DNA from: Rhodospirillaceae bacterium
GTDB lineage: Bacteria > Pseudomonadota > Gammaproteobacteria > Steroidobacterales > Rariloculaceae
NCBI GenBank assembly: GCA_024638465.1
Contig: JAHEKF010000007.1
Span: forward strand, 7,729 to 71,728
Direction: 5' to 3'
Length of the DNA stretch: 64,000 bases
The translations under genes were made by a program, and so were the position numbers. Positions 3,676 through 59,671 of the stretch are shown here, in pieces; the stretch's first letter is position 1, and each line of letters begins with the position of its first letter. Below the pieces are notes generated by a model. It ran no database searches. It was not told where the DNA came from and saw nothing but the letters and a program-made list of their open reading frames with translations.

Positions 3676-5053
3676 GAACGATCTGCCGAAAAATACCGAG
3701 ACCAAGATAGGCAAGAATAATCGAGAGTAGCGGGTTGATGTAGTTGAAGAATGCCCACGGAGCATACTCGAGCGTCGCCAATCCGAGCACGCCCGTGTAG
3801 AACGCGCCCGCCGTCGTCCACGGTATCAATGGCGTACTCAGCGTCGCGCCCTCCTCGAGACAGCGCGACAGCATGGTTTTTCTGAGGCCGTCCTCTTCGA
3901 AGGATTCCTTGAATATCTGTCCGCCGAAGATAATGGAGAGATAAGCCTCTCCCATGCTCATATTGGCGGCGATTCCGGAGCCGATCGTCGCAGTCATCAG
4001 CGTCGCCGTGTTCCGGATACGAGTGAGTAGCCCACTCAGCATCACACGCACGAAACCGCTTCGATCGAGCAATCCGCCGAGTGCGAGAGCGATGAGTGCC
4101 AGCGACAGCGTCCACATCATGCTTTGAATTCCGCCCCGATTGAGCAGGACGTCGACGAGTTCCGCCCCGGTTTCCGCGGAATAACCGTTTTGGAGGCTTG
4201 CGAGCACATCCGTGAATTGACGTCCCTGCAGAAGAATCGCACAGCCGATCGCGGTTGCTATGCCTGCCAGCATGCTCGGTTCGACCGAGACTCGAATCAT
4301 GCTGAGGCCGAGCAGAACGATTAGAGGTGCGAGCGTCCACGGACTGATCGCGAACTCAACGGCGAGGCGCTGCTTGAGTTCGACGACTTGCTGAGCCGAG
4401 ACGGTTTGATCGGCGTATTGCATCCCGATCGCGGCAAACAATAAAAGCGCGATGAAGTAAGTCGGTACCGTCGTGTACATCATCGCGCGTATGTGGGCAT
4501 AAACATCCGTATTCGCGCTCATCGCCGCCAGTATTGTCGTGTCCGATACTGGCGACATCTTGTCACCGAAACTGGCTCCGGAAACGATCATGCCCGCCAC
4601 CAGCGGCAACGGAATACCCAGCGCGCCGCCCAGACCCATTAGCACGACGCCGACTGTGCCGACCGTTCCCCAGGCCGTTCCCGTTACTACAGACATGAAA
4701 CTGCAGAATACGAGCCCGGCCGGCAGGAACACGGCCGGATGCAGAATATCGACGCCGTAGTAGACCAGGCTACCGACCGTACCGCTCTCCATTAGCGCGG
4801 CGATGAGGATGCCGATGAGGATAAAGATGAATATCGCGCCGAGTCCCTTCTCTATGCCGGACACCATTGCGGCGCGGATATCGACGAAGCGATAGCCGAG
4901 ATAGGCCGAGTTCGCTCCGACCCAGACAAGGCCGATGATGAGCAGGCTGTGCAGATTGACCTCGAACCAGAGTAGCCCGACGATCACGATGCAGACGACG
5001 CCACCGAAGCTAAGGATCGATTGGGCAAGACCTGGCTCGCGGGGATTGTTCAT
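3665..5053 (-). CDS. nhaC: NhaC-family Na+/H+ (or substrate/cation) antiporter
   Basis: 462-aa polytopic membrane protein whose overall sequence pattern is typical of NhaC. Confidence 0.8.
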   Translation of the reverse strand: MNNPREPGLAQSILSFGGVVCIVIVGLLWFEVNLHSLLIIGLVWVGANSAYLGYRFVDIRAAMVSGIEKGLGAIFIFILIGILIAALMESGTVGSLVYYGVDILHPAVFLPAGLVFCSFMSVVTGTAWGTVGTVGVVLMGLGGALGIPLPLVAGMIVSGASFGDKMSPVSDTTILAAMSANTDVYAHIRAMMYTTVPTYFIALLLFAAIGMQYADQTVSAQQVVELKQRLAVEFAISPWTLAPLIVLLGLSMIRVSVEPSMLAGIATAIGCAILLQGRQFTDVLASLQNGYSAETGAELVDVLLNRGGIQSMMWTLSLALIALALGGLLDRSGFVRVMLSGLLTRIRNTATLMTATIGSGIAANMSMGEAYLSIIFGGQIFKESFEEDGLRKTMLSRCLEEGATLSTPLIPWTTAGAFYTGVLGLATLEYAPWAFFNYINPLLSIILAYLGLGIFRQIVRDS

Positions 5054-5559
5054 TTGACGGCTCGCGATAGGCGCTCGCTGCGCCCGGGATTATCTGCCCG
5101 CCGGCATGTTCTTGTTCGTGTTCAATTTCCGGCGCTGCCGCTGGCATCCTACAGCAACAGGGCATCCCGGGGGAGGGTTACGGGTTGATGAAAACCGGCT
5201 CTCCGGGCCGCCTGATACGCTGACCTTGCCGCGCCGGCAGAGTAGAATCGGAGCCTGAATAACAATAAGGGGGACGCGCGTGAGATTCACGATCGCTCCG
5301 ATGGCCATTGCCTGGCTCGCCTCCGGGATCGAGCGCTGCGAAGCCGAAGATCTCGACCTAAGTGCGCCGTCGCTCGAGGGAAAGTAGATGGCGGATACTT
5401 CCGCGCTGATTCGTTATCCCCGTGACATCGACGGCTTCTTCACGGCGATGATGCATTCGCGAGACCTGCTCTATTCGCCGCATTTGCCGACGATGCGTTT
5501 CGACTGTGACCCCGACGTTACGAGGCGCTTCGTGCCTTAACACGAATCGGGAAGCCAAG

Positions 5560-6630
5560 ATGATCTTCCGTCAGTTGTTCGATAGCGAGTCCTGGACTTT
5601 CACTTATCTGTTGGCGGATCCGGATTCGAGAGAAGCGCTGCTAATCGACACGGTTTTCGAAAAACACTTGCGGGATCTCGCCCTGGTTCGCGAGCTCGAT
5701 CTCGAGCTGAAGTACACCCTCGACACGCATGTCCATGCCGATCACGTGACGGGTGCATGGCTGATGCGCGGTGCTACGGGCTGCCGAATTGCCGTCGCGG
5801 CGGCTTCCGGAGCCGAAGGCGCCGATGTGTACATCGAGGACGGCGACGAGATCGGTGTCGGAACGGTCAGAGTCAGGGCGCGAGCCACCCCGGGCCATAC
5901 CGATGGCTGCATGACCTATGTGCTTGCCGACGAGTCGATGGCTTTCACCGGCGACGCATTATTGATTCGCGGTGCCGGCCGCACGGATTTCCAGGCCGGT
6001 GATGCGCGTCGTCTGTTCCATTCCGTCCGCGACAGAATTCTGAGTCTTCCGGATGACTGCGTACTTTATCCAGCGCACGACTACAGCGGCCGGACCTCGA
6101 CGACGGTTGCTGAGGAGCGTGCTCACAACCCGCGCCTGGGTGACGGCAAGCGCGAGGAAGATTTTGTTGGCTATATGGAGAATCTCGGTCTGCCGCATCC
6201 GAAAAAGATGCAGGCGGCGGTTCCGGCGAATCTTCAATGCGGCCGGCCCGGTGAGGGGGACGAAACTCCGGCCTTACCAGACTGGGGTCCGGTTATTCGA
6301 ACGTTCGCCGGCGTACTCGAAGTTGATCCCGAGTGGGTCCACAGTCATCGTGAAGACGTGGTGGTAATCGACGTCCGCGAGCAGGAAGAGATCGACGCGA
6401 CGCCACTCGGCTGCATCAGCGGCTCGCTCATGATTCCGCTGAGTAAACTTCGTGATCGAATGGACGAAGTGCCGAAGGACGGACCCGTCGTCACTATATG
6501 CCCCGCAGGTGCGCGGTCGGCGCAGGCGGCATTGATACTGGAGCAAGCAGGTTACCCGAAAGTCGCGAACCTACCCGGCGGTCTGTTCCGCTGGCAGGCG
6601 CTCGGCTTTCCGGTTGTACAGCCGGGGTGA
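5560..6630 (+). CDS. Persulfide (sulfur) dioxygenase, ETHE1-type MBL fold, fused to a C-terminal rhodanese domain
   Basis: HVHADHVTG (HxHxDH), TPGHTDGC, RTDFQ.GD, YPAHDY, then a rhodanese domain with the active-site loop CPAGARS. ATG at 5560 is preceded by GGGAAG. Confidence 0.85.
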   Translation: MIFRQLFDSESWTFTYLLADPDSREALLIDTVFEKHLRDLALVRELDLELKYTLDTHVHADHVTGAWLMRGATGCRIAVAAASGAEGADVYIEDGDEIGVGTVRVRARATPGHTDGCMTYVLADESMAFTGDALLIRGAGRTDFQAGDARRLFHSVRDRILSLPDDCVLYPAHDYSGRTSTTVAEERAHNPRLGDGKREEDFVGYMENLGLPHPKKMQAAVPANLQCGRPGEGDETPALPDWGPVIRTFAGVLEVDPEWVHSHREDVVVIDVREQEEIDATPLGCISGSLMIPLSKLRDRMDEVPKDGPVVTICPAGARSAQAALILEQAGYPKVANLPGGLFRWQALGFPVVQPG

Positions 6631-6644
6631 CTCGGGGAGAGCGA

Positions 6645-7565
6645 ATGAAAATTATTGAAGGCGTAGCAATCGTTATCGTTTCTTTAGCGATTGCGCGCGG
6701 TATTGCGGCCCAGCCAATAGAAGGCTCCGGCTTCGTCGTCGATTTCGACGCCGTTGAATTACGCATGACGCACGTTGCCGGCAACGTCTACGCATTGGCC
6801 GGTGCGGGCGGCACGATCGGGGTGTTTGTGAGCGACGATGCGGTGTTTCTCGTGGACGATCAGTTCGCCCCCCTGACCGAGCGGATTCGTGCCGAAATCG
6901 GGAAAGTTGGCGATGCGCCGGTGCGTTTTATCGTCAACACGCATTTCCACGAGGATCATACGAGCGGCAATGAAAACTTCAGCGAGGCCGGTACCGTTAT
7001 TGTCGCGCACGAGAACGTACGCAGAACGCTGGCGCAGCCGCACTATATTGAGATGATTCAAACGCGGTTCGCAGCTTTTGGCGCGAGCGCGCTGCCCATC
7101 GTGACATTTCAGGACTCGATGGCGTTCCATCTCGGCGGCGAGCGTATCGATGTCATTCATTCGCCGCCGGCGCATACCGACGGCGATTCCATGATCTTTT
7201 TCCGTGGGTCGAATGTCCTGCACATGGGCGACGTTTTCCGCTCGCGCGGCCAACCGATTTTTGACCGTAATAACGGCGGATCATACGAAGGCTTGATCGC
7301 TTCGGCCGATTTTGCGCTGAACCTGATCGGCGAGGACACGATGATTATTCCCGGACACGGTGTCGTCTCGACAAAAGCCGATCTGCGCCAGAGCCGGGAA
7401 ATTATGGCGACGATTCGCGATCGCATTCAGGCGGGTATCGACGCCGAGATGACTGTCGAGCAGGTTATCGCAACCGATCCAACCCGCGGTTTCGACTGGC
7501 GCGATGGGCGGCTGACGGTCGCCGACACCATTCGCTGGATCTACGCGGAACTCGCAGCAAAATAG
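6645..7565 (+). CDS. Secreted metallo-beta-lactamase-fold hydrolase
   Basis: Signal peptide MKIIEGVAIVIVSLAIARGIAAQ, then HFHEDHTSGN, AHTDGD and PGHG motifs. Confidence 0.8.
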   Translation: MKIIEGVAIVIVSLAIARGIAAQPIEGSGFVVDFDAVELRMTHVAGNVYALAGAGGTIGVFVSDDAVFLVDDQFAPLTERIRAEIGKVGDAPVRFIVNTHFHEDHTSGNENFSEAGTVIVAHENVRRTLAQPHYIEMIQTRFAAFGASALPIVTFQDSMAFHLGGERIDVIHSPPAHTDGDSMIFFRGSNVLHMGDVFRSRGQPIFDRNNGGSYEGLIASADFALNLIGEDTMIIPGHGVVSTKADLRQSREIMATIRDRIQAGIDAEMTVEQVIATDPTRGFDWRDGRLTVADTIRWIYAELAAK

Positions 7566-7583
7566 ACATTGCGGAGAACTACA

Positions 7584-8606
7584 GTGATAGAGCGCACGAT
7601 ACTCGTTTCTCTGATGATGATGCCGCTGACGTCAGCGGCGCAGGACAGCCCGTTCCTCGGGGAATGGCTGCTCCGTCTCGACCAGGACAATCGAATCGGT
7701 CGCTCGGCTTACGGCAGCCTCGTGTTCGAGCTCGGCACGGGCGGTCTGGAGGCTTATATCGATGGGGGATCGGTCAATGTCCTCGAAATCGACGGCACCC
7801 GGATCGTATTCGATTTCGACTGGTCGGATCTGCCCGATGCGCGGCATCTCAGTATCCTGGAAGGCGCACTCGCCAACGGCGTTATTACCGGCACGGCGAC
7901 AGAGAACGGTGAAGATCGGGGCGGTTGGCGCGCGATGCGCTCCGAGCGACGGGATACGGTCGGGTTAGCGCCGGAACCGGTCGATCTGACAGGTATCTGG
8001 AGTCGTCCCGCGATCCTGAGCAAGCATGAATTCGAGGTGACGGCAGCAGGGCGTGCAGCCGACGAACGCTATGATTCGACGATTGACGATCCCATCCTGC
8101 GTTGCGTTTCGGATGGCCTGATCCGAATGTCGCACGGGCCGTTCCATATCGAGGTTGTTTCGATGCCGAACAAAATCATCGTGCTGCACGAGGACTTGCA
8201 CGAGGTGCGGCGCATCTACACAGACGGGCGGGATTTTCCTGCGGATATCGAATATGCCAATCTCGCGATGGGCTTCTCGATCGGCCGCTGGGAAGGGTCG
8301 ACGCTCGTCGTCGAAAGTCGTGGCCTGAAACCGTCGGTCTGGGATGCCGCGGGTATGCCGATATCGTCCGACGCGGTTGTAACCGAGCGCTGGTATGTCG
8401 ACGACGCGGGGGAACTTCATGTCGAGTTTTCTCTCGATGATCCCGTCAACTATCATCGCCCGGTGGAGATGCACGGCGTCCGTTCGCCTCTGCCGCCCAG
8501 TACGTTAATTCCCGAATATTCCTGCGATCCACATGCGTTTTATCGTAGTCTGCAGCTGGAAGGCCGGCTCGACGAGTACTGGAGTCGCGGTGCCAACCGC
8601 TTATAG
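7584..8606 (+). CDS. Secreted protein: unique N-terminal region plus 'module C' of the repeated family
   Basis: Signal peptide ending SAAQD. Landmarks: LTGIW, LRCVSDG, MGFSIGRWEGSTLVVESRG, DDPVNYHRP, EYSCDP. GTG 7584 (GGAG 8 nt upstream) is preferred over TTG 7569. Confidence 0.6.
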   Translation: MIERTILVSLMMMPLTSAAQDSPFLGEWLLRLDQDNRIGRSAYGSLVFELGTGGLEAYIDGGSVNVLEIDGTRIVFDFDWSDLPDARHLSILEGALANGVITGTATENGEDRGGWRAMRSERRDTVGLAPEPVDLTGIWSRPAILSKHEFEVTAAGRAADERYDSTIDDPILRCVSDGLIRMSHGPFHIEVVSMPNKIIVLHEDLHEVRRIYTDGRDFPADIEYANLAMGFSIGRWEGSTLVVESRGLKPSVWDAAGMPISSDAVVTERWYVDDAGELHVEFSLDDPVNYHRPVEMHGVRSPLPPSTLIPEYSCDPHAFYRSLQLEGRLDEYWSRGANRL

Positions 8607-8621
8607 AGGAGGGGAAAAAAG

Positions 8622-8981
8622 ATGAAGAAATGGGTTTCCCTGGCCGTTGCGTCCGCAACCGCTCTGGTTGTCGCTCAATCGGCGACCGCGCATCATGCGC
8701 TCGCGGCCAATTACGACACGGACAACATCGGTACGATCGAAGGTGTCGTCGTGGAGGTCTTCTGGTCCAATCCGCACGTGCATTATTATATCGAGGTGGC
8801 GAACGCAGAAGGTGTCACGGAGCTATGGGATGTCGAAACATCGAATCTGGCTACCGTGATGCGATCGGGATGGACGAGAGAAACAGTTGAAGTCGGTGAT
8901 CGAATTCGCATCTCCGGGCAGCTCGGGCGTAACGGGATACATCGGCTGGCGCTCGACCGCGAGTCGCTCGAAGTGCTGTAG
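8622..8981 (+). CDS. Secreted 'module N' protein (I believe DUF6152-like), stand-alone
   Basis: AGGAGG ribosome-binding site. Signal peptide ...AQSATA|HHALA, then EGVVVEVFWSNPH, WDVE, GWTRE, GDRIRISG. Confidence 0.7.
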   Translation: MKKWVSLAVASATALVVAQSATAHHALAANYDTDNIGTIEGVVVEVFWSNPHVHYYIEVANAEGVTELWDVETSNLATVMRSGWTRETVEVGDRIRISGQLGRNGIHRLALDRESLEVL

Positions 8982-8996
8982 CCGGGGAGCTTGAAA

Positions 8997-9809
8997 ATGA
9001 ACGATTTCGGAAATAAGCGTGCAAGTGTCGCCGGCGCCGTAGTTGCGGTGATGCTGGCTTTTCATTGCTTGCCGTCGGTATCGCAGGAACAAGCGAGGCC
9101 CGACCTCAACGGTATCTGGAACGGTACGGTGACGTCGACTCAGCATCCGCTCTGGACCGTGGAGGAATTATTCCAGTGCAACTGTACGCCGGAGGCTTAC
9201 GAGTATCTCAATGAGCTGCTCTACAATCCGGCTTACGATCACATGTCTGCCGAAGACATTATCGACGAGGTTGCGCGCTTCAATAGCGAACAGATCGCCT
9301 CGCTCTTTACCGATGAGGCGCGCGCATACGCCGAGGCTTTCGATCATGCGAACGATCCCGCCATTCAATGCGAATATTTCGGTGCGTTTCGCACGATCAT
9401 GCATAACGATCCGATACTGATCGAGCAGACCGACGACCGAATCACGATCTATCCGGAGGACATGGCATCGGACCGTGTCATCTACATGGACGAGCGTCCT
9501 CATCCGGACGATATCCTGTCGCCGCTCGGGCACTCGATCGGTTGGTACGAGGGCAATACGCTCGTTATCGAGACCGTCGGTGTGAGCGCGGCGATCGCTG
9601 ACGACAACCTTTCCATTCACAACACCGACGGGGCGAGAAGCATCGAGCGGTACACGATCAGTGATGACGGTACCCATCTCGTCATGGATTTCACGATTTT
9701 CGATCCGAATACATTTATCGAACCGCTGACGCTGAGGCGTACGCGGATATTCACGCCCGACTGGACCATTGAAGATGCGCCCTGCGAGTCGATCTCCGGG
9801 CAACGTTAA
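8997..9809 (+). CDS. Secreted 'module C' protein, stand-alone
   Basis: Signal peptide, LNGIW, IQCEYFG, LGHSIGWYEGNTLVIETVG, FDPNTFIEP, APCES. ATG 8997 with GGGGAG upstream (TTG 8991 is an alternative). Confidence 0.6.
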   Translation: MNDFGNKRASVAGAVVAVMLAFHCLPSVSQEQARPDLNGIWNGTVTSTQHPLWTVEELFQCNCTPEAYEYLNELLYNPAYDHMSAEDIIDEVARFNSEQIASLFTDEARAYAEAFDHANDPAIQCEYFGAFRTIMHNDPILIEQTDDRITIYPEDMASDRVIYMDERPHPDDILSPLGHSIGWYEGNTLVIETVGVSAAIADDNLSIHNTDGARSIERYTISDDGTHLVMDFTIFDPNTFIEPLTLRRTRIFTPDWTIEDAPCESISGQR

Positions 9810-9822
9810 AGGAGGTAGAGCG

Positions 9823-10275
9823 ATGACCATCAGAACAGTCTTGTACTTCGCGATTCCGGCTCTCGCTGCGGGCGCGACGATCGCGCATCACAATCCCAAC
9901 GCGCATTACATCGTCGGCCAAAGCATCGAGATCGATGGTGTCGTAACGGAGTTTCGCGGCGTCAATCCGCACTCGCGAATCTATTTCGAGTCCACGAACG
10001 ACGCAGGGGAGACCGAGGAGTGGATGGCCGAAGGCGACAGCATTATTAATCTGCGACGCGCCGGCTGGGCCGATGACGAGATTCAGCCGGGTGACCGGAT
10101 CCATATTCAGGGCCGGCCGTCCCGGCACGGCCGCAACCTCGTCGAGTGGCAGATCATCACGCGCCTGGACGGTGCGGAACTCGGCGGCGGTAACGGCCAG
10201 CAGACCGAGCGCTATCGCTATATGGATGAGAGACTCGCCGAGTTTCGGCGCCAGCGCGACGCCGGCGGGCGATGA
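9823..10275 (+). CDS. Secreted 'module N' protein, stand-alone
   Basis: AAAGGAGG ribosome-binding site. ...AGATIA|HHNPN, DGVVTEFRGVNPH, WMAE, GWADD, GDRIHIQG. Confidence 0.7.
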   Translation: MTIRTVLYFAIPALAAGATIAHHNPNAHYIVGQSIEIDGVVTEFRGVNPHSRIYFESTNDAGETEEWMAEGDSIINLRRAGWADDEIQPGDRIHIQGRPSRHGRNLVEWQIITRLDGAELGGGNGQQTERYRYMDERLAEFRRQRDAGGR

Positions 10276-11367
10276 ATGCCGCTTCGCGAGTGCATTCCGG
10301 GCGACTTTCACAAGAGACTTCACGTGAGACTGCGTAATGTCGCTTTGGTCGCGTTGTTGCTGGCGTCGCCGGGTTTCGGTCACCATAGCGATGCGGGTCT
10401 CGATATGGACTCGACCGTGGTACTGGAGGGCACGGTTCTCGAATACAACTTCCGCAACCCGCACGTCTATATCATCGTCGCAGTGGCAGACGACACGGGC
10501 GACACGGTCGAGTGGGAGCTGCAAACGAGCTCAACGATAACGGTCATGCGAATGGGCTGGACACGCGACTCGCTCGCAGCCGGTGACGATGTGACATTCT
10601 CCGTGCATGCGGCATTCGATGGTCGACCCTATGGTCTGCTCAATACGATTCAAAAAGCCGATGGCGAAATTCTGGCGACCTCCTTTTACGACACTTCGGG
10701 CGAGCCGCGAATCGAGAGCCCCGTGGCGCTTCAGAGCGCAAGCTCTCTGGAGGGCAAGTGGATCGCGGACGGTGACAAACTCGTCGACTATCCGGGCGGT
10801 TTCGACGGATTTTTTCGCGCGCAGCTCACGCTCAACGACAAAGCGCTCGCGGCGCAGGCAGCCTACAACGAGCTCTCCAGCGAAAATCCGAATGCAACAT
10901 GCGTCGGCCGCCCGACGCCAGCGCTCATCGTCAATACGCTGCTTTACCCACTCGAGATCGAGTATCTCGATGATGGCGACATCGTTGCTATTCGCAGCGA
11001 ATTCTTCGACGAGGAGCGCTTCGTGTACATGGATGGTCGCGACCATCCGTCTGGCAGTGATCGATTCGATCTCGGCCATTCGATTGGTCGTTGGGAGGGT
11101 GATGTACTGGTCGTCGATACGCGAAATTTCGCGGATCACCGTTCACCGTATCAAACAGGTGTGCCTTCCGGGGGTGAGAAGCACGTGGTCGAACGCTTCG
11201 AGCTCAGCGACGACGGTACGCGAATATTCGTCGAGTTCATGCTGGAGGATCCTGAGTATCTTGTTGGTTCGATGACGCATCGTCGCGAGCTCATTTACGT
11301 TCCGGATCACGAGATGGTCGAGTTCGACTGCGATATAGAAGCGACGTCGCGCTTCGTTACGGAGTAG
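10276..11367 (+). CDS. Secreted fusion of module N and module C
   Basis: ...SPGFG|HHSDA, EGTVLEYNFRNPH, WELQ, GWTRD; then LEGKW, ATCVGRP, LGHSIGRWEGDVLVVDTRN, EDPEYL, EFDCD. The start abuts the previous stop (alternative GTG at 10324). Confidence 0.7.
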   Translation: MPLRECIPGDFHKRLHVRLRNVALVALLLASPGFGHHSDAGLDMDSTVVLEGTVLEYNFRNPHVYIIVAVADDTGDTVEWELQTSSTITVMRMGWTRDSLAAGDDVTFSVHAAFDGRPYGLLNTIQKADGEILATSFYDTSGEPRIESPVALQSASSLEGKWIADGDKLVDYPGGFDGFFRAQLTLNDKALAAQAAYNELSSENPNATCVGRPTPALIVNTLLYPLEIEYLDDGDIVAIRSEFFDEERFVYMDGRDHPSGSDRFDLGHSIGRWEGDVLVVDTRNFADHRSPYQTGVPSGGEKHVVERFELSDDGTRIFVEFMLEDPEYLVGSMTHRRELIYVPDHEMVEFDCDIEATSRFVTE

Positions 11368-11382
11368 TCGCCGGTCCGTCGA

Positions 11383-11391
11383 GGGGGGGGG
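11383..11391 (+). repeat. Homopolymeric G9 tract forming the ribosome-binding region 2 nt upstream of the ATG at 11394
   Basis: Read directly from the sequence: gag-ggggggggg-at-ATG. Confidence 0.9.
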
Positions 11392-11393
11392 AT

Positions 11394-12422
11394 ATGCAAC
11401 GCAGCCTGGGCCTTACGATCGTGCTTTCGTTGCCGGCAATGGCAACGGCGCATCATTCACGTTCTCATTATCCTGAAGTCATCGAGGAGGTCACTGGCGA
11501 ACTCGTCGCCGTCCATTGGGTCAATCCGCATGTCGGTTTCGAGATCGACGTTATCGACGACGCCGGCCAGACGGAGCGTTGGCGCATCGAAGGCATATCG
11601 AACCTCGGTAACATGCGACGCGGCGGCGTCGGCAGCGAGATCTTTAACATCGGTGAGCAGGTGACCTTTGCGGGGAGCGTATCTGTACGCCGTGAGCGCG
11701 ACATGCTCGCGTCGAACGTCTTGCTGGAGAACGGCACCGAGGTCGTCCTTGGGCAAAACGAACCATTGCGTTGGACCGCTGGTAACGTGGAGTTGAAGCC
11801 GCAACCAACGGGGACCAACTCTATGGTCGATGCGCTCGCCGAGAATCGCGGGCTGTGGCGCGTCTGGAGCAATGTTCCGGATGGCGTCGGGCAGCGTACG
11901 GATTTTCGCTTCTCGCAAGCGGCCATCGACGCGCGCGCGGAGTGGAACGAGATAGATAACTACGCCGAGCGCTGCGTTGATGAGGGAATGCCGCGCATCA
12001 TGCGCAATCCGCATCCGTTCGAGTTCATCGACAACGGCGATGAGATCGAAATCGTTTCCGAGCTCTACGATCTCACTCGCTTCGTACACATGGGTCAGGA
12101 TGAGCCGCCCGCCGGCACGGAACCGTCCCTGCTCGGCTATTCAGTTGGCCGCTGGGAAGATGAGACGCTCGTGGTTACGACATCGCTCATCAGCTGGCCC
12201 TACTTCGACAATATTGGTACGCCACAGTCGGACAACGCCTGGATGGTCGAGGAATTCACGGTCAGCGAAGATCAGGCGCGGCTGGACTACCGCTTCACGT
12301 TCAACGATCCGGTTTACTTCGCTGAGCCCGCCGTCTACGAAAGATACTGGCTTGCGCTTGGCGACGAGATCGAAGTCTACGACTGCCAGGTGTTCGGCGA
12401 GTCCGTCTCCGGGCTCGAATGA
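11394..12422 (+). CDS. Secreted fusion of module N and module C
   Basis: ...AMATA|HHSRS, GELVAVHWVNPH, WRIE; then RGLWRVW, ERCVDEG, LGYSVGRWEDETLVVTTS, NDPVYFAEP, VYDCQ. Confidence 0.7.
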   Translation: MQRSLGLTIVLSLPAMATAHHSRSHYPEVIEEVTGELVAVHWVNPHVGFEIDVIDDAGQTERWRIEGISNLGNMRRGGVGSEIFNIGEQVTFAGSVSVRRERDMLASNVLLENGTEVVLGQNEPLRWTAGNVELKPQPTGTNSMVDALAENRGLWRVWSNVPDGVGQRTDFRFSQAAIDARAEWNEIDNYAERCVDEGMPRIMRNPHPFEFIDNGDEIEIVSELYDLTRFVHMGQDEPPAGTEPSLLGYSVGRWEDETLVVTTSLISWPYFDNIGTPQSDNAWMVEEFTVSEDQARLDYRFTFNDPVYFAEPAVYERYWLALGDEIEVYDCQVFGESVSGLE

Positions 12423-12459
12423 GGCGCTTGCCCGTTCTTGCCAATGCCCGGATCGACGG

Positions 12460-13179
12460 TTGACGGCTGTCAGGGTCACGCCGCGTAGTCGCTGGCAGCG
12501 CTGGGTGCACACGCCCCGGGCGCTGCCGTTTCGAAGGATGCTCTACCAGATCCACTTGTGGGTCGGCATCGGAATCGGCCTCTACATCGTTTTTATCAGC
12601 GTAACCGGGAGCGCCGTCGTATTTCGACGCGAATTCGGACGTTGGTTCATCACGGAAGACAACAGCTTTCCCTGGCAGGTCCGGACCATGGAATGGTTCG
12701 TGGATCTTCATGACAATCTTCTTGCGGGCGCGCTCGGTCGTGACATCAATGGTGTCTTCGCGATCCTCTGCCTTGTGCTCGTGCTGACGGGCGCGATCAT
12801 CTGGTGGCCCGGACGAAAACGCTGGCGTCGCAGCATCGTGCCCTCCCGACCGTCGACGACGCACCGATTCTCCTGGCATCTGCACAGCGCGATCGGCTTG
12901 TGGGCTTACGTGCTTTTGTTCGGCTGGGCGTTTACCGGAATCTACTTCGCGTTCCCCGAGCCGTTCGAGTGGTTCTTCAATAACTTCGACTCGGACCCTA
13001 CCGACTTCGAGCGGCCGGGCGAGAGCGTGCTGCTTGCGCTCATCCGCTGGCACTTCGGTCGCTTCGGCGGACTCGAGATCCGGATACTGTGGGTAATACT
13101 CGGATTAATTCCGGCCGCACTGTTTATCACGGGCTTTATCGTGTGGTGGAAGCGCGTGGTTAGCGAGCACTGGCGGTAA
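12460..13179 (+). CDS. PepSY-associated TM-helix (PepSY_TM) membrane protein, short form
   Basis: RRMLYQIHLWVGIGIGLYIVFISVTGSAVVFRREF is the typical PepSY_TM opening. Four predicted TM segments carry His residues (HLW, DLHDN, WHLHSAIGLW, RWHFGRFGG). Possible starts are TTG 12460, GTG 12505 or ATG 12538. The track start at 11977 is an overlap artefact. Confidence 0.7.
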   Translation: MTAVRVTPRSRWQRWVHTPRALPFRRMLYQIHLWVGIGIGLYIVFISVTGSAVVFRREFGRWFITEDNSFPWQVRTMEWFVDLHDNLLAGALGRDINGVFAILCLVLVLTGAIIWWPGRKRWRRSIVPSRPSTTHRFSWHLHSAIGLWAYVLLFGWAFTGIYFAFPEPFEWFFNNFDSDPTDFERPGESVLLALIRWHFGRFGGLEIRILWVILGLIPAALFITGFIVWWKRVVSEHWR

Positions 13180-13216
13180 CCGGAACAGGCCGGTTCTGTC
13201 TCTCCGCCCGGAATCC

Positions 13217-13963
13217 ATGTATCGTGCCGCCGTGGATACAGTCTCGCTGCCTGATTGGCCTGCAAAGGCCGCCCTGTTTCTCGACGTCGACGGCACACTG
13301 CTCGAGTTTGCGGACAAACCGCACCTCGTCGAGCGCCCACCGCGTTTCCTCGCTTTGCTGGAGCGTCTCCACGGCGAAATTCCCGTCGCTTTCATCAGCG
13401 GCCGGTCGATCGACGATCTCGATCGAATTCTTGCGCCGCATCGTTTTCCGCTCGCCGGTATCCACGGTGCCGAGAGACGAAATCACGCGGGCGAGCGTTC
13501 GCTGGCGGAATCGAATCCCGACGCACTGAAGGACGCGCGAGCGGTCATCGACGCGTTTCATTCGAAGCACGACGGACTCGTTCTCGAAGACAAGGCAGTA
13601 GGGTTGGCGCTGCATTTCCGCCTCCGACCCGATCTCGAGGATGACGTTCACGCGCTGGAGCGGCGACTCGACGAGATGCTGCCCTCGGGCTACGGTGTCA
13701 TGCGCGGCAAGATGCTGATCGAGGTCTACACGAGCAGTGTCGACAAGGGCACCGCGATTCGCGAATTTATGGACGAGGAGCCGTTCGCAGGTGCTACGCC
13801 GGTCTTCATCGGTGACGATGTCACCGATGAAGCGGGGTTTGTCGTGGTTAACGAGTTGGGCGGGATCTCCATAAAGGTGAACGACGGTGATACCGTAGCG
13901 CAGTCGCGGCTGCCCGACGTCAGTGCGGTCATCGGATGGCTCGAGCAGGTGCTCCCCGGTTAA
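13217..13963 (+). CDS. otsB: Trehalose-6-phosphate phosphatase
   Basis: HAD motif FLDVDGTLLEF, SGR, and GDDVTDE near the C-terminus. It lies in a cluster with otsA. Confidence 0.85.
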   Translation: MYRAAVDTVSLPDWPAKAALFLDVDGTLLEFADKPHLVERPPRFLALLERLHGEIPVAFISGRSIDDLDRILAPHRFPLAGIHGAERRNHAGERSLAESNPDALKDARAVIDAFHSKHDGLVLEDKAVGLALHFRLRPDLEDDVHALERRLDEMLPSGYGVMRGKMLIEVYTSSVDKGTAIREFMDEEPFAGATPVFIGDDVTDEAGFVVVNELGGISIKVNDGDTVAQSRLPDVSAVIGWLEQVLPG

Positions 13964-13976
13964 TCAGGAACAGAAA

Positions 13977-15770
13977 GTGTCAAATCTCGAATTGGGTGTT
14001 ATAGGCAATTGCCAGATCGCGGTCCTCGTCGATCAGATGGGACGTTATGTCTGGGGTTCGTTCCCGCGTATGGACAGCGATCCGTTCTTTTGCACGCTAC
14101 TGGATCCGAAACAGCAGGACGGTCCTATCGGCTGCTTCGAGATCGAACTCCTGAATTTCGAATCCGCCGAACAGCGTTACGTCGAGAATACCGCAATACT
14201 CGAGACTATCTTGCGTGACGATCGCGGCGGTGTACTGAAGATCGTCGATTTCGCGCCGCGCTATAACCTGTTCGGGCGCAGCTTCCACCCGATCATGACG
14301 ATACGAAACATCATTCCGGCTGCGGGAAGTCCCGTGGTCCGCATCAAGCTGCGCCCGGCCGCGAATTATGGTTCCCGCCCCACGACCCAAACCTACGGCA
14401 GTAACCACGTTCGCTTCGAGAACGGCGATTACACACTGCGATTAACTACCAACGTACCAATCTCGACGGTCCTCGACGGCAGCTCGTTCATCGTCGAGCA
14501 TTCGATGGCGCTGATACTCGGTCCGGACGAGTCGGTGCCCGACGACCCCGTCAAAACCTGTCGCGAGATGTATGGCGAGACTAAGAATTACTGGCAAGGG
14601 TGGAGTCGCGCATTGTCGATTCCGTTCGAATGGCAGCGTGAAGTCATACGGGCGGCTATTACGCTAAAGCTCTGCACCTTCGAAGACACGGGGGCGGTCC
14701 TCGCAGCGCACACGACGTCGGTGCCCGAAGCGGCGAACAGCGGGCGCAACTGGGATTATCGATACTGCTGGCTTCGCGACAGCTATTACACGGTGCAGGC
14801 ACTGAACCGGCTCGGTGCTACGCGAACGATGAAAGAGTTCCTCCGCTACCTGTTCAATCTCATCGCCGAGTTCGACAATGACGAGGAGCAGTTGCAGCCC
14901 GTCTACGGGATCTCGGGCCTTGCCGAGCTGACCGAGTCCCAGGTAGACAGTCTTGCGGGATACCGCGGCATGGGTCCGGTTCGCATCGGCAACGATGCCT
15001 ATCGCCAGGTGCAGAACGACGTCTATGGTGCAGTCGTTCTCGCGTCGACGCAGAGCTTTTTCGACAAGCGCCTGGTGGAGTACGGCAGCGCAGAGGAATT
15101 TTCGCGACTGGAAAAACTCGGCGAGCAGGCAGCGCAACTTTATGACCAGCCTGATGCGGGTATCTGGGAGTTCCGAGGTCGCGAGGCAGTCCACACCTAT
15201 TCGAGCATCATGTGCTGGGCCGCCTGCGACCGGCTGGCACGAATTGCGACGGAGCTCGGGATTGACGCTCGTGCCGACCACTGGTCGGGTACCGCGAACC
15301 GTATTCGGGAAACGATAATAGAGAGAGCATGGAGCGAAGACCGCAAATGCTTCGTTTCGAGCTTCGGCGGCAACGATCTCGATGCGAGCCTGCTCATTAT
15401 GACTGACGTCGGTTTCATCGGTCCGCAGGATCCGCGTTTCCTCGCGACGCTCGACGCGATAGAAAAGGAGCTGAAACAGGGCCCTTATATGTTCCGCTAC
15501 AACAATGCGGACGATTTCGGATTGCCGGAGACCGCATTCAACGTCTGCACATTCTGGTACATCAACGCGCTGGCGGCTGTTGGACGGCGCGAAGAGGCAA
15601 GAGAGCTTTTCGAGAATATGCTCGCTCGACGCAATTCCCTCGGGCTTCTGTCGGAAGATCTCGATCCGAAGACTGGTGAACTCTGGGGCAATTTCCCACA
15701 AACCTACAGCATGGTGGGTATTATCATGGGCGCTATGCGTCTAAGTAGATCCTGGGAGGAGGCTTTGTGA
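13977..15770 (+). CDS. Glycoside hydrolase family 15 (glucoamylase/trehalase-like)
   Basis: LELGVIGNCQIAVLVD N-terminus, SVPEAANSGRNWDYRYCWLRD and FPQTYSMVG motifs typical of bacterial GH15. GTG 13977 chosen as the start. Confidence 0.85.
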   Translation: MSNLELGVIGNCQIAVLVDQMGRYVWGSFPRMDSDPFFCTLLDPKQQDGPIGCFEIELLNFESAEQRYVENTAILETILRDDRGGVLKIVDFAPRYNLFGRSFHPIMTIRNIIPAAGSPVVRIKLRPAANYGSRPTTQTYGSNHVRFENGDYTLRLTTNVPISTVLDGSSFIVEHSMALILGPDESVPDDPVKTCREMYGETKNYWQGWSRALSIPFEWQREVIRAAITLKLCTFEDTGAVLAAHTTSVPEAANSGRNWDYRYCWLRDSYYTVQALNRLGATRTMKEFLRYLFNLIAEFDNDEEQLQPVYGISGLAELTESQVDSLAGYRGMGPVRIGNDAYRQVQNDVYGAVVLASTQSFFDKRLVEYGSAEEFSRLEKLGEQAAQLYDQPDAGIWEFRGREAVHTYSSIMCWAACDRLARIATELGIDARADHWSGTANRIRETIIERAWSEDRKCFVSSFGGNDLDASLLIMTDVGFIGPQDPRFLATLDAIEKELKQGPYMFRYNNADDFGLPETAFNVCTFWYINALAAVGRREEARELFENMLARRNSLGLLSEDLDPKTGELWGNFPQTYSMVGIIMGAMRLSRSWEEAL

Positions 15771-17203
15771 GCCGAATTGTCGCGATATCGAACCGCGTCG
15801 CGATACCAACCAGTGGAAAGTCGGCCGGAGGATTGGCCGTGGGCGTGCTCGCTGCGCTCAAAGAACGCGGCGGCGTATGGTTCGGATGGAGCGGCAAGAC
15901 AACCGGAAGTGAGCCTCGAGACCCGGAAGTAAAGACGATCGATAACATCGACTTCGTCACGATAGATCTGAACCGTCAAGACTTCGCGGGCTACTACAAC
16001 GGCTTCAGTAACAACTCGCTATGGCCGTTGTTACATTTTATGGTGGGCTACTTTACGTTTAGCAGGTCGCACTATCAGGCCTACCGACGCGTTAACGAGT
16101 TCTTCGCGCGCAAGCTGATGTCGGTGATTCAGCCCGACGATCTGATCTGGGTGCACGACTATCACCTGTTTCCATTGGGTGCGGAGCTGCGGCGAGCCGG
16201 GGTGGATCAGCCGATCGGCTTCTTCTTGCACGTGCCCTTCCCTAGTTTCGATGTGTTGCGTGTCCTGCCTGGTTATCGAGCTGTATTGAGTGAGCTGGCA
16301 GCCTACGACGTGGTTGGCTTCCAGACCGCGCGGGATCTGTGGGCGTTCCATGACTGTGTGACTCAGCCGGAGATCGGCGGAGGAATCGCGAAGGATGGTC
16401 GAGTAACTGCATTCGGCAGGACGTTTCAGGCCAAGGTTTTTCCGATTGGTATCGACGTCGACGATTGCGCATCTGCGGCCGAGAAATTCTCTAACAACAC
16501 ACAACTGCACCAGCTCGCGAGCAGTCTCGAGGACAGGAAGCTGATTGTCGGAATCGATCGTCTGGATTACAGCAAGGGTCTGGCCTTACGATTCCGCGGA
16601 TTCGAATCGCTACTCGAAAACTATCCGTCCACGCGCGGCAAAGTCACCTATATGCAGATTGCCCCGCCAACGCGCGCGGGCGTTCGTACCTATGACGACA
16701 TACGAGAAGGCCTGGAAAGGACGGCCGGCAACATCAACGGGCGCTTCGCGGAGATGGATTGGGTCCCGATCCGCTATCTGAACCGAGGCTATCGGCGGGA
16801 ACTGGTCATGGCGATTCTGAGGCTGGCGTCTGTCGGGCTTGTGACACCGATTCGCGACGGCATGAACCTGGTGGCGAAAGAATTCGTCGCAAGCCAGGAT
16901 CCCGAAGATCCGGGGATGCTCGTATTGTCGACCCTGGCTGGTGCTGCGTACGAGCTTCAGGACGCCGTTCTCGTCAACCCGTACGATCGACAGAGTGTCG
17001 CTGACGGTCTGCAGATTGCCATCGAGATGCCGCTCGATGAACGGCAAGAGCGCCATCGTTCAATGATGGAGATATTGCGGCGTAACGACATTCATGCCTG
17101 GAGCCGGGGTTTTGTCGAGGCGCTTCAAACCGACCCTCTCACCGCGAGCGGCTCATTGGCCATTCCAAATCCTCATACGCTGGTATCCGGGATCGACGAC
17201 TAG
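15767..17203 (+). CDS. otsA: Alpha,alpha-trehalose-phosphate synthase (GT20)
   Basis: SNRV...GGLA, WFGWSG, LWPLLH, WVHDYHL, DRLDYSKG and DGMNLVAKEF motifs. The GTG start overlaps the GH15 stop (GTGA). Confidence 0.9.
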   Translation: MSRIVAISNRVAIPTSGKSAGGLAVGVLAALKERGGVWFGWSGKTTGSEPRDPEVKTIDNIDFVTIDLNRQDFAGYYNGFSNNSLWPLLHFMVGYFTFSRSHYQAYRRVNEFFARKLMSVIQPDDLIWVHDYHLFPLGAELRRAGVDQPIGFFLHVPFPSFDVLRVLPGYRAVLSELAAYDVVGFQTARDLWAFHDCVTQPEIGGGIAKDGRVTAFGRTFQAKVFPIGIDVDDCASAAEKFSNNTQLHQLASSLEDRKLIVGIDRLDYSKGLALRFRGFESLLENYPSTRGKVTYMQIAPPTRAGVRTYDDIREGLERTAGNINGRFAEMDWVPIRYLNRGYRRELVMAILRLASVGLVTPIRDGMNLVAKEFVASQDPEDPGMLVLSTLAGAAYELQDAVLVNPYDRQSVADGLQIAIEMPLDERQERHRSMMEILRRNDIHAWSRGFVEALQTDPLTASGSLAIPNPHTLVSGIDD

Positions 17204-23495: not shown

Positions 23496-23768
23496 CGCCG
23501 TTATCCGCACCGTGTCACAGATTAAACTTTCTTTAAGACGGAACGTTTCCATCTCAAGGTAATCTCTGATTAAATCTCGCCTCGGCGGCGAGCCCCGTCT
23601 GCGTGGGACGACAATGACGGCAAGGGCGCAATAGCCGCCCGCCGAGATCGGAGATACTCCGATCGGGAGCTCATTCAGGGCGAACCCGTCGTGTTCGACG
23701 GGCCGGCACGACCTCATACGGCCTCTGAAACCGGATGTAGCAATACTGTGGCTGAGCAGACAGATAAT

Positions 23769-25970: not shown

Positions 25971-26068
25971 AGGCGCCGCGCGCAAGAGCTTGCGCCGACT
26001 CGCCGCAGGCGTCAGGATGTTTCTCCAATGGCCCGGATCGACCCAAAACTACAGGGGATATTAGAAAG

Positions 26069-26641: not shown

Positions 26642-26670
26642 CGCGCGACGAATTCCCCGCTTAAATCAAT

Positions 26671-26710
26671 CGGATCAGGCCCGCAGACGCGGTTCTGTCG
26701 GCCTGATCCG
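26671..26710 (+). terminator. Possible terminator hairpin after the peroxiredoxin gene
   Basis: An 11-bp perfect stem, cggatcaggcc / ggcctgatccg, around an 18-nt loop. A second GC hairpin lies at 26721-26739 (ccggccc gtttc gggccgg). There is no clear T-tract. Confidence 0.35.
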
Positions 26711-26864
26711 TGAGCGGTCTCCGGCCCGTTTCGGGCCGGGTTCGAAGCGGGATTGGCCCCGGTTTCTGCGTATACCCGCGCCAATCTTGCGGTGATTTAA
26801 TCTGCTTCGCGCGCGTTCGGCACGCGAAATTCCGTATGATCGCCGTGGCTAAACAGGGCTTGGA

Positions 26865-50748: not shown

Positions 50749-50866
50749 GACACCGACCAGACAACCCGGTAGGAAGAGAGCGCCACGGAGTTTGGCGCTT
50801 GATGATTCGGAGTTACGGATCGAGAGCACGGACAGCTCTTACGACGTCTGGCTGCAGGGATTGCGG

Positions 50867-51451: not shown

Positions 51452-51663
51452 AGGTCAGGCCGCCGTGTCGCCAAAACTCGATTCGCGTCCAATTATCCGC
51501 GCGGTCTCAGGCAGCAACAACCAGCATTTCGCTCCTTCAGAAAAGTTCAGGCGCGGATGCTAAATCCCGGTTATTTCGTACGTGTTTCTCGTGATATCGT
51601 CAACCGAAACGGAACGGAGCCGTTGGATCCGAGAGGCAGGGACGGGACAGCGAGGAGGTTGCA

Positions 51664-59659: not shown

Positions 59660-59671
59660 GGTCGAGCCACG

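Follow-up and report, generated by a model that had tools for sequence, protein, structure and literature searches.

The array lies in the genome of an uncultured marine gammaproteobacterium, within a stretch of 64,000 nucleotides that was analysed as a whole (the window). Six open reading frames on the + strand (g1 to g6, 7569-12422) follow one another with intergenic gaps of 15, 15, 13, 0 and 26 nt and are assembled from two modules in the order C, N, C, N, N+C, N+C. The consecutive genes and their positions agree with the initial annotation, and the module order that it proposed is borne out by PF19649 matches for N and by BLASTP for C. All six proteins had also been said to carry signal peptides, and their N-termini do fit, as judged by a heuristic that combines hydrophobicity with the -3/-1 rule. 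The window carries three family genes beyond these six, and they are included among the features below.

5560-6630, + strand: cytoplasmic fusion of an MBL domain (persulfide-dioxygenase/glyoxalase-II-like) and a rhodanese domain; PF00753 and PF00581; NF040641 (Blh-like) E = 1.5e-32, below cut-off
6645-7565, + strand: secreted MBL-fold protein, SoxH-like; PF00753 E = 3e-17; TIGR04559 E = 7e-28, below cut-off
7569-8606, + strand: g1, with a signal peptide, domain X (about 115 aa) and module C; start at TTG 7569 or GTG 7584
8622-8981, + strand: g2, N-only, DUF6152; PF19649 E = 1e-22; predicted cleavage between ATA and HH
8997-9809, + strand: g3, C-only, carrying a helical insert and a signal peptide of its own
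9823-10275, + strand: g4, N-only, DUF6152; PF19649 E = 3e-20; C-terminal tail of about 45 aa; predicted cleavage between TIA and HH
10276-11367, + strand: g5, fused N+C; PF19649 E = 1.5e-20; predicted cleavage between GFG and HH
11394-12422, + strand: g6, fused N+C of a separate orthogroup (HHSRSHYP...); PF19649 E = 1e-11
12460-13179, + strand: g7, PepSY_TM protein; PF03929 E = 6e-38; start uncertain, TTG 12460 or ATG 12538
51664-52071, + strand: orphan N-only paralogue (DUF6152) with no adjoining C gene; PF19649 E = 2.6e-9
56915-57889, + strand: N+C paralogue; PF19649 E = 7e-26; matches to local N and C HMMs
59672-60766, + strand: N+C paralogue; PF19649 E = 1.4e-21; matches to local HMMs

The more likely start of g5 is the GTG at 10324, rather than the ATG at 10276, as this would give a protein of 347 aa that matches the lengths of its homologues. 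An open reading frame at 50792-51688, upstream of the orphan N gene, is without homologues and probably not a real gene. The gene for the secreted MBL-fold protein ends 3 nt upstream of g1 and is probably cotranscribed with it, and the transcription unit of the array possibly begins with the MBL-rhodanese fusion gene.

The recurring modules are truly homologous, as had been claimed, through PF19649 in the case of N and pairwise BLASTP in the case of C. Copies of module C in g1, g3, g5 and g6 match one another with E = 4e-11 to 1e-17 (7e-14 to 2e-15 for g1 against the other three), and g5 and g6 match over their full lengths with E = 2e-27. The motifs originally listed for these modules do recur, but the exact strings are approximate: one reads GHSIGWYEGN in g3, and g1 and g3 have DPxxY or DPxxF in place of the "DPxY" motif. 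Similarly, g1 had been described as a plain C gene, and it does encode module C, but this follows the extra N-terminal domain X, which bears no resemblance to modules N and C (hhalign probability <2%). No part of g1 matches Pfam, and orthologues of the gene occur in loci L010 and L013. Neither domain X nor the mature His-His N-terminus described below had been recognized in the initial annotation.

Module N was correctly named as DUF6152, with PF19649 matching g2, g4, g5 and g6 above the gathering cut-off (E = 1e-22 to 1e-11), and likewise the three further family genes of the window. This family is unmentioned in the literature that was searched, so it has no function on record. An AF2 model of mature g2 (pLDDT 90) predicts a canonical OB-fold that Foldseek matches to PriB, SSB and LysRS with TM scores of 0.6-0.67; the matches are solely to nucleic-acid-binding OB-folds and include no metal-binding OB protein. 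At the N-terminus, HH comes directly after a canonical signal-peptidase site (A/V/L/S at -3 and A/G/S at -1) in 209 of 211 copies of module N. The mature protein is consequently predicted to begin with His1-His2. Both of these histidines, together with a Pro-His dipeptide, are 100% conserved among 205 sequences. In the AF2 models, the N-terminus lies at one end of a long strand and the N-P-H turn between β1 and β2 at the other. A site that uses both may therefore depend on a folded-back tail or on contact between chains. The mature His-His, the OB-fold assignment and the partnership of N with module C all appear to be unrecorded so far.

Module C has no match in Pfam or NCBIfam, and its superfamily comprises about 19,800 clusters at 50% identity. 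Most members of this superfamily lack N, and DUF6152 is present in 5 of 149 representatives. The module is about 200 aa long, opens with a calycin-type GxW motif, and has two Cys that are 97% conserved. R, S, E-R and D are invariant at certain positions, and its conserved positions are mainly structural (G, W, P and C). The AF2 model of g5 (pLDDT 82) pairs the OB barrel with a second, FABP/CRBP-like barrel. Module C is thus predicted to be a calycin/FABP-like β-barrel with a helical lid, and its best Foldseek matches are CRBP1, FABP and SAHS (E = 3e-4; TM to the target 0.6, with modest scores of 0.55-0.6 overall). This likeness to calycins was absent from the initial annotation. Searches of the PDB by sequence found no solved structure for family members, and no experiment is on record for any of them.

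It had been argued that the two modules function together, and comparison across genomes agrees. A survey of 87 non-redundant loci with the local N and C HMMs found co-occurrence and fusion, the 304 family ORFs being divided into 151 fused, 73 N-only and 80 C-only genes. For about two thirds of the solo genes, a solo gene of the other module lies no more than 250 nt away in the same orientation, and homologues of g5 that are fused N+C proteins of about 347 aa account for more than 2,100 matches. Split and fused forms make up separate clades, with best matches falling within type for 58 of 66 solo and 138 of 145 fused sequences. In the split form, the C gene comes first and the N gene second: the g1>g2 and g3>g4 pairs are conserved elsewhere, while the g2>g3 pair is not. 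The g3 orthogroup is C-only (147 members of 260-300 aa without a Pfam domain), and orthologues of g4 (145-151 aa) come after g3-like genes in other genomes. A DUF6152 gene follows the g3 orthologue in L004, L006 and L008, whose neighborhoods are otherwise unrelated. Counting only the retrieved loci, one MAG has at least 34 family genes and another at least 30.

The surroundings of these genes are rich in c-type cytochromes. In 26 of 87 loci, ORFs with CxxCH are found no farther than 1.5 kb from family genes, and the density of such ORFs at this range is 2.6 times that at 3 kb or more (33 versus 12 ORFs in similar amounts of sequence). One protein, P0369, fuses a cytochrome c to module C. In the window, a SorA-like Mo enzyme and a cytochrome c are encoded between two N+C genes: the one at 56915-57889 overlaps the start of the molybdoenzyme gene by 4 nt, and the one at 59672-60766 starts 12 nt past the cytochrome c gene at 59135-59659. 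A Mo enzyme and a cytochrome c are also near an N+C gene in L001, and a cupredoxin-like gene adjoins one in L010. The most frequent neighbors, however, are hydrolases rather than redox proteins (MBL, NHL propeller, amidase, amidohydrolase and cyclase), and the family of the MBL protein upstream of g1 is the most frequent cluster (15 of 87 loci). No enrichment of copper-homeostasis genes was found near family genes.

The initial annotation ended the array with a FoxB-like PepSY_TM protein, and g7 does match FoxB (7abw, E = 7e-9) as well as PF03929. A transmembrane scan finds four hydrophobic segments with His in or near them. Three of its histidines (H84, H142 and H198) are shared by all of 32 homologues in its subfamily, and a fourth (H32) reaches at least 90% conservation among them. 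All four align with His-containing segments of FoxB and are of the haem-ligand type. By sequence, g7 is a minimal FoxB-like protein without periplasmic domains that putatively binds haem. Such a cap is not general, for PepSY_TM occurs in only 5 of 88 family loci, each time directly after a g6 orthologue, and is thus not a family trait. Orthologues of g6 (at least 61% identity) are confined to loci with a g7 orthologue directly after them, and this order is found in all four independent loci that have downstream sequence, whereas more distant g7 homologues (53-68% identity) occur in unrelated contexts.

The module homology, predicted folds, split/fused linkage, sequence-derived mature His-His and synteny statistics lead us to propose, tentatively, that N and C form 1:1 periplasmic units in which an N-terminal-His metal site, probably for copper, accompanies a ligand barrel and is wired to redox partners. 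The six genes would then encode four Sec-exported units with one N OB-fold and one C barrel each, two of them split (g1+g2 and g3+g4) and two in a single chain (g5 and g6). Cleavage by signal peptidase would expose His1-His2, which could form the metal site together with the invariant Pro-His, and the chemistry of N-terminal His makes Cu(II)/Cu(I) the most likely occupant. Module C, which its Cys pair would close, may hold a small ligand or substrate beside this site. A constant metal site, a variable barrel and 30 or more copies per genome suggest that one chemistry serves for many substrates, in a periplasm that would be rich in secreted catabolic enzymes. Electrons might come from periplasmic c-type cytochromes or, for the g6 orthogroup, from g7 acting as a di-haem FoxB-type transmembrane carrier. 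Because g7 lacks substrate-binding domains of its own, it would serve a soluble client, much as MsrQ does for MsrP. Metal binding, metal identity, the N:C complex, ligand binding and electron transfer are all inferred here. This large and unstudied family may represent a new kind of periplasmic protein for handling metals and ligands.

A possible but doubtful alternative is that these proteins are metal-free, noncatalytic carriers whose barrel passes hydrophobic or amphiphilic organics imported by TonB-dependent receptors to secreted catabolic enzymes or inner-membrane transporters, with the OB domain used for docking or oligomerization and PepSY_TM incidental. The FABP/CRBP-like fold of module C, its mainly structural conservation and the high copy number are compatible with this role, as are the adjoining secreted hydrolases and the TonB-dependent receptor genes near family genes in 8 loci and also L097. 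However, it does not explain a completely conserved mature His-His and Pro-His, the enrichment of cytochromes c and their fusion to C, or the persistence of PepSY_TM after g6 orthologues down to 61% identity. It seems unlikely that the units are instead metallochaperones or scavengers with a ZinT-like logic, whose N-terminus would take Zn, Cu or Ni from metal-poor seawater for neighboring Sec-exported metalloenzymes (MBL, amidohydrolase, cyclase, Mo and Cu proteins) while g7 reduces the metal for release. ZinT/YodA combines a calycin fold, a periplasmic location and a His-rich N-terminus, the His-His of module N would be exposed only in the periplasm, and many neighbors do belong to metalloenzyme families. 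A copper reductase has also been proposed among PepSY_TM proteins (CrpH; PMC13038864). Against this, 30 or more paralogues per genome are far above known chaperone systems, metal transporter or regulator genes are not enriched near family genes in the 87 loci, and PDB searches show no sequence similarity to ZinT.

Iron and sulfur offer two further readings. In one, a siderocalin-like barrel binds a TonB-imported ferric chelate and g7 reduces the iron, as in FoxA/FoxB. This agrees with the reduction of ferrisiderophores by FoxB, FsrB, FpvG and HiuB, with the JGI label of g7 homologues ("iron-regulated membrane protein") and with the TonB-dependent receptor genes of the 8 loci. It is nonetheless improbable, since the array neither contains nor adjoins a gene for a TonB-dependent receptor, for siderophores or for ferrous-iron transport, no Fur-box-like sequence with up to 6 mismatches lies upstream of it (a point that also counts against metallochaperones), PepSY_TM is missing from 83 of 88 family loci, and the copy number does not fit. 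We consider it very improbable that the proteins are accessories of periplasmic sulfur oxidation that bind or present sulfite, thiosulfate, persulfide or organosulfur species. The array does follow the persulfide-dioxygenase-like/rhodanese fusion and the SoxH-like gene, the N+C genes farther along the window flank a SorAB-like sulfite dehydrogenase pair, and L001 has its Mo enzyme and cytochrome c. However, the fusion gene has counterparts in L010 and L012 and lies outside the conserved core, neither it nor the MBL gene is kept upstream of the array in L013, their matches are below curated cut-offs, Mo enzymes are not in recurrent neighbor clusters, and most loci are without sulfur genes.

The metal-and-barrel reading has partial parallels in known systems. 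The known histidine-brace classes are defined chemically by an N-terminal His that becomes free when the signal peptide is removed (PMC10952591). Like module N, the copper proteins of this type (LPMOs, CopC, PmoF1, X325/Bim1 and YcnI) are secreted and have a second invariant His elsewhere in the domain. They have immunoglobulin-like or cupredoxin-like sandwiches, however, whereas module N has a predicted OB-fold with no sequence or fold match to them, begins with two consecutive invariant His and is a putative copper binder. To our knowledge, the OB-fold is without precedent as a histidine-brace scaffold. Module C has the GxW start and, by prediction, the lidded barrel of calycins (FABP, CRBP, SAHS and lipocalins), but it has no detected sequence similarity to them, is larger, and has a Cys pair and R, S, E-R and D positions that are absent from calycins. 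YceI is another bacterial parallel, a periplasmic lipocalin-like protein whose gene lies next to that of YceJ, a di-haem cytochrome b561.

PepSY_TM proteins are haem-dependent, periplasm-facing metal reductases (PMC13038864; PMC11334425). The group includes FoxB, FsrB, FpvG, HiuB and CrpH, and g7 resembles it in its matches to PF03929 and FoxB, its four transmembrane segments and its four conserved His at the aligned FoxB positions. In characterized members, large periplasmic domains make up the substrate cavity (PMC13038864), whereas g7 has no such domains and its periplasmic loops are about 40 aa, compared to about 90 and 115 aa in FoxB, so any substrate would need another protein to present it. 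The cores of MsrQ and PepSY_TM are structurally alike (PMC11334425). MsrP is a molybdoenzyme, which g6 is not, and the g6-g7 partnership is drawn from synteny only, but the arrangement follows the logic of MsrQ-MsrP, in which a small haem-b membrane protein without a catalytic periplasmic domain is encoded next to its soluble client.

Six secreted-protein genes (g1 to g6), followed directly by a PepSY_TM gene (g7), are assembled from two modules. These are N, the DUF6152 module of about 100-120 aa whose mature form is predicted to start with His-His, and C, a predicted barrel module of about 200 aa.

g1, 7569/7584-8606, + strand: ORF with an extra domain X and module C
g2, 8622-8981, + strand: ORF, N only, PF19649 at 80.5 bits
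g3, 8997-9809, + strand: ORF, C only
g4, 9823-10275, + strand: ORF, N only, PF19649 at 72.5 bits
g5, 10276-11367, + strand: ORF, fused N+C, PF19649 at 73.5 bits
g6, 11394-12422, + strand: ORF, fused N+C, PF19649 at 45.1 bits
g7, ending at 13179, + strand: ORF, PF03929

The gaps between ORFs from g1 to g6 are 15, 15, 13, 0 and 26 nt, and all six proteins have signal-peptide-like starts according to a simple sequence heuristic. The Pfam search places PF19649 in g2, g4, g5 and g6 (E = 1e-22 to 1e-11, above the gathering score of 27 bits) and gives no match to this model in g1 or g3. Pairwise BLASTP (E = 4e-11 to 1e-17) shows that the C-terminal ~200 aa of g1, g5 and g6 share homology with one another and with most of g3. 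The Pfam result for N and the BLASTP result for C confirm the order C, N, C, N, N+C, N+C given in the initial annotation, whose sequence motifs are present but approximate. Two of its gene descriptions need amendment. The gene that it listed as a plain C gene, g1, does contain module C but also carries an N-terminal domain of ~115 aa unlike either module, and g5 probably starts at a GTG at 10324, not at 10276. The array is best read as four N:C units (g1+g2, g3+g4, g5 and g6), and the window holds three further family genes at 51664-52071, 56915-57889 and 59672-60766. A promoter and terminator scan of 5000-13400 returned counts no higher than those in shuffled sequence, so the limits of the operon are drawn from gene spacing.

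Domain X occupies 7569-7990, the N-terminal third of g1, and is found in g1 orthologues only (those of L010 and L013, two of the homologous loci fetched from other genomes). It has no detectable similarity to N, C or any Pfam family. Its interpretation as a degenerate N or C module was rejected at hhalign probabilities below 2%, and a phmmer self-match inside the L013 orthologue of g1 was not upheld at the profile level.

The same modules occur both split and fused in other genomes. Fused N+C ORFs number 151 in the scanned loci (median 349 aa), beside 73 that have N only (median 144 aa) and 80 that have C only (median 270 aa); the genome scan was seeded with an alignment of the g5 orthogroup (A1), and the resulting 80 loci are biased towards g5-type genes. 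For about two-thirds of the solo genes, a solo gene for the other module lies no more than 250 nt away on the same strand, either upstream or downstream, and many of the others are members of C-C-N triplets. When loci are compared, 58 of 66 solo and 138 of 145 fused N modules find their best match in a module of their own type, and C modules behave similarly. This pattern indicates that solo and fused modules are separate lineages and argues that the split genes are not assembly artefacts. In three neighbourhoods unrelated to one another, the gene after the g3 orthologue is g4-like (145-150 aa), and g1-like long C genes have a g2-like gene next downstream. Since these split pairs are C-first and the fusion is N-first, the fusion did not arise simply by reading through the genes as they are now ordered. 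The coexistence of split and fused forms amounts to a ready-made prediction of a protein complex between the two modules.

The family is large and almost undescribed. Proteins of the g5 type return more than 2,100 matches, all named hypothetical or "DUF6152 family", and the module C profile matches 19,780 clusters (50% identity) at E <= 1e-3 and 12,258 at E <= 1e-10. Among the 149 best representatives of the C-profile matches, no Pfam model covers C, DUF6152 is present in five, and some have two C modules. In one of them (P0369, 330 aa), the chain starts with a mono-haem cytochrome c domain (CQACH) and continues into C, a second Rosetta-stone hint that may point towards electron transfer. Nearly all genome matches come from MAGs of Gammaproteobacteria that live in the sea or in sediment (Candidatus Rariloculaceae, Arenicellaceae, UBA1148 and Steroidobacteraceae), with a few labelled Acidobacteria or Rhodospirillaceae. 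Counting the fetched loci alone, there are at least 34 family genes in the UBA1148 MAG and at least 30 in XB_MAG81. DUF6152 has no mention in the literature searched, and papers naming the candidate family Rariloculaceae carry no functional information.

Module N is predicted to be an OB-fold with an unusual start. The AlphaFold2 model of mature g2, computed alone, is a canonical OB-fold (pLDDT 90) that is closest in Foldseek to PriB, SSB and the LysRS anticodon-binding domain (TM 0.6-0.67), and the N domain of the g5 model also matches OB-folds in the PDB. No CusF-type or other metal-binding OB protein is among the best 50 Foldseek matches of the isolated N model. HMMs built from the window's modules were run on 93 related loci and the window, and near-duplicate loci were then removed. 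In this set, His-His stands right behind a canonical signal peptide in 209 of 211 N-module proteins (predicted cleavage with A, V, L or S at -3 and A, G or S at -1), and the two exceptions are truncated ORFs. With the dipeptide in this position, the mature proteins should begin His1-His2. Neither these residues nor the Pro-His of the N-P-H motif, which lies in the beta1-beta2 turn, vary in any of 205 sequences (100% conservation), and the Asn, one Trp and one Arg are ~95% conserved there. The AlphaFold2 models put the N-terminus and the N-P-H turn at opposite ends of the long first strand, and a metal site shared by the three histidines is therefore putative.

For module C, the AlphaFold2 model of g5 (40 homologues, pLDDT 82) consists of two beta-domains, and its C domain matches CRBP1, FABP and tardigrade SAHS in a Foldseek search of the PDB (E = 3e-4 to 3e-3, TM(target) 0.55-0.60). 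A lipocalin-type GxW opens the module. The Trp of this (L/I)xGxW element is present in 90% of 217 C modules and invariant in a diverse C-module alignment (A2), and the Cys pair is 97% conserved. Sequence and profile searches with module C and g1 found no relative in Pfam, NCBIfam or the PDB. Module C would thus be calycin-like by predicted fold alone.

The FoxB-like nature that the initial annotation gave to g7 holds. The protein matches PF03929 at 131.7 bits (E = 6e-38, above the gathering score of 28.8 bits) and FoxB (7abw) at E = 7e-9 over three TM-proximal stretches by phmmer, and it has a His in each of the four aligned FoxB segments that contain one. Across 32 homologues, H84, H142 and H198 never vary, and conservation of H32 is at least 90%. 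Two His pairs ligate two haems in FoxB (PMC11334425; PMC13038864); the four histidines of g7 appear to correspond to these pairs, and haem binding is predicted. The PepSY_TM "cap" of the array is likewise real and conserved, and it is specific to the g6 orthogroup, not general to the family. PepSY_TM occurs in 5 of 88 loci, each time directly behind a g6 orthologue (61-86% identity), and one locus (L014) carries g5-g6-g7 only. Three more distant g7 homologues (53-68% identity) have other surroundings, for example an amidase or DUF6351 protein gene, and on both counts PepSY_TM was rejected as a general partner of the family. In L094 (6437-8714) the short g7-like gene directly follows a secreted amidase gene, in L095 (3705-6807) a DUF6351 gene, and a minimal PepSY_TM may be a tail gene that serves various proteins of the periplasm. 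A C-type gene with a frameshift (1643-2489) lies 3.6 kb from the PepSY_TM gene of L095, which is too weak to count as a partnership.

The whole g1-g7 array is kept at 67-81% identity in three loci (L010, L012 and L013). Two genes upstream are tightly spaced with it; both are present in L010 and L012 and absent in L013.

5560-6630: cytoplasmic fusion of an MBL-fold (persulfide-dioxygenase-like) protein and a rhodanese
6645-7565: secreted SoxH-like MBL protein

A trehalose cluster at 13217-17203, directly downstream of the array and also kept there in L010 and L012, encodes a trehalose-phosphatase (otsB-like), a GH15 glycoside hydrolase and a GT20 trehalose-phosphate synthase (otsA-like). The window's first ORF (32-1033) is a homologue of an NHL-repeat gene in L010, the closest relative. 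In that locus (3341-5035), a cupredoxin-like gene (weak PF00127 match) and an OsmC gene lie just upstream of another N+C gene and the NHL-repeat gene. Elsewhere in the window, two paralogous DUF5916 proteins of ~757 aa, one also CBM9-like, are encoded at 23691-29135 beside genes for an alginate-export-family outer-membrane protein and a sodium:solute symporter.

Across 87 loci, the recurrent neighbours of family genes are mostly secreted proteins.

SoxH-like MBL, more frequent beside N/C genes than any other family: 15 of 87 loci
NHL propeller: 12 of 87
Uncharacterised secreted 226-aa protein with no Pfam match (for example L028, 6567-7247): 12 of 87
Di-haem cytochrome c: 11 of 87
Amidase: 9 of 87
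TonB-dependent receptor: 8 of 87
RidA-like protein: 7 of 87
DUF3500 protein: 6 of 87
PQQ dehydrogenase-cytochrome c: 6 of 87
Cyclase: 6 of 87
Amidohydrolase: 6 of 87
RraA-like protein, not secreted: 6 of 87

ORFs with a CxxCH motif occur within 1.5 kb of family genes in 26 of the 87 loci, and their density there is 2.6 times that at 3 kb or more (33 versus 12 ORFs in similar amounts of sequence). In two loci, the first 23 nt of a g3-like C gene lie within a DUF3500 gene, so that DUF3500, C and N form a trio (L004, 7965-9837; L006, 8049-9837). The other family genes of the window have the following surroundings.

51664-52071: orphan N-only gene, PF19649 at 37.5 bits, with no C gene beside it
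56915-57889: N+C paralogue, PF19649 at 90.7 bits, overlapping the molybdoenzyme gene by 4 nt
57886-59148: SorA-like molybdopterin oxidoreductase, overlapping the cytochrome c gene
59135-59659: cytochrome c, overlapping the molybdoenzyme gene
59672-60766: N+C paralogue, PF19649 at 76.8 bits, 12 nt after the cytochrome c gene

The four genes from 56915 to 60766 have the look of a single operon, in which the family would be coupled to a redox pair of the sulfite-dehydrogenase-like kind. An ORF at 50792-51688 that overlaps the orphan N gene from upstream was considered as its hidden C partner and rejected, since it lacks homologues and is probably spurious. Downstream of the orphan, at 52788-53813, lies a gene for a secreted cyclase-family protein.

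We tentatively favour, at somewhat less than even confidence, a reading in which periplasmic N/C units carry an N-terminal-His metal site, probably for copper, together with a ligand barrel and a connection to redox partners. Each unit would be a periplasmic two-module protein. Its OB module would form the metal site from the unmasked His1-His2 and the invariant Pro-His, with copper as the chemically most plausible metal, and its calycin barrel would hold a small ligand. The site is invariant, the barrel varies, and the family has expanded to dozens of copies in the company of secreted catabolic enzymes, all of which suggests a single chemistry that is put to use on many substrates. A redox chemistry is suggested by the enrichment of cytochrome c genes, the fusion of a cytochrome c with C and the pairing of g6 with g7. 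Lacking a substrate cavity, g7 would work on a soluble client protein.

Other functions would fit parts of the same picture. The units could be metal-free carriers of lipid or organic ligands, which we consider a credible but rather unlikely account, or ZinT-like metallochaperones for neighbouring metalloenzymes, which is distinctly unlikely. Ferrisiderophore handling with the FoxB-like reductase seems highly improbable, as no Fur-box-like site with six or fewer mismatches lies upstream of the operon and iron regulation is consequently unsupported. A role as accessories of sulfur oxidation is the faintest prospect of all. The favoured N-terminal-His copper reading can also be carried further, to a form that we regard as unlikely. 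DUF6152 would then be an unrecognised histidine-brace-like copper centre on an OB-fold and, paired 1:1 with a new calycin-type substrate barrel, would make up a large group of oxidative enzymes in the periplasm. Either c-type cytochromes or a minimal FoxB-type haem reductase would power them, and uncultured marine Gammaproteobacteria would have multiplied them to dozens of copies for use against diverse, possibly recalcitrant, organic substrates.

The invariant mature His-His is the most telling feature of DUF6152 and has apparently gone unnoted, and the module C superfamily of ~19,800 clusters (50% identity) has no Pfam model, solved structure or literature. If the N-terminal His site binds copper, then no centre of this kind would have been seen before on an OB scaffold. 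Copper binding would also imply new periplasmic oxidative chemistry in abundant uncultured heterotrophs of ocean and sediment, with a bearing on the degradation of dissolved organic matter. If the g6-g7 pairing is functional, then PepSY_TM reductases can serve soluble protein clients besides metal chelates.

N is a DUF6152 member and g7 a PepSY_TM member, and periplasmic N-terminal-His proteins, calycin binders and haem transmembrane reductases with soluble clients are kinds already known. An N-terminal His whose amine is freed by signal-peptide removal defines the histidine brace of LPMOs, CopC, PmoF and related copper proteins (PMC10952591). The exposed N-terminal His is predicted for N as well, and the second His that completes the T-shaped 3N copper site in those proteins has a candidate in the fully conserved N-P-H His. 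N nevertheless falls outside the histidine-brace families (LPMO AA9-17, CopC, PmoF and YcnI), with Pfam returning DUF6152 only and Foldseek OB-folds only. By sequence and fold it would belong to none of them, though it may work like one. Module C shares the N-terminal G-x-W signature of the calycin superfamily and has no detectable sequence homology to any known calycin family. In characterised PepSY_TM reductases, a substrate cavity is built by large domains on the periplasmic side (PMC13038864), as in FoxB residues 40-128 and 224-338. The corresponding parts of g7 are residues 63-76 and 168-197, with periplasmic loops of only ~40 aa, so that g7 is a member of the family that lacks this feature. 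The proposed pairing of g7 with a soluble client would follow the same logic as MsrQ-MsrP.
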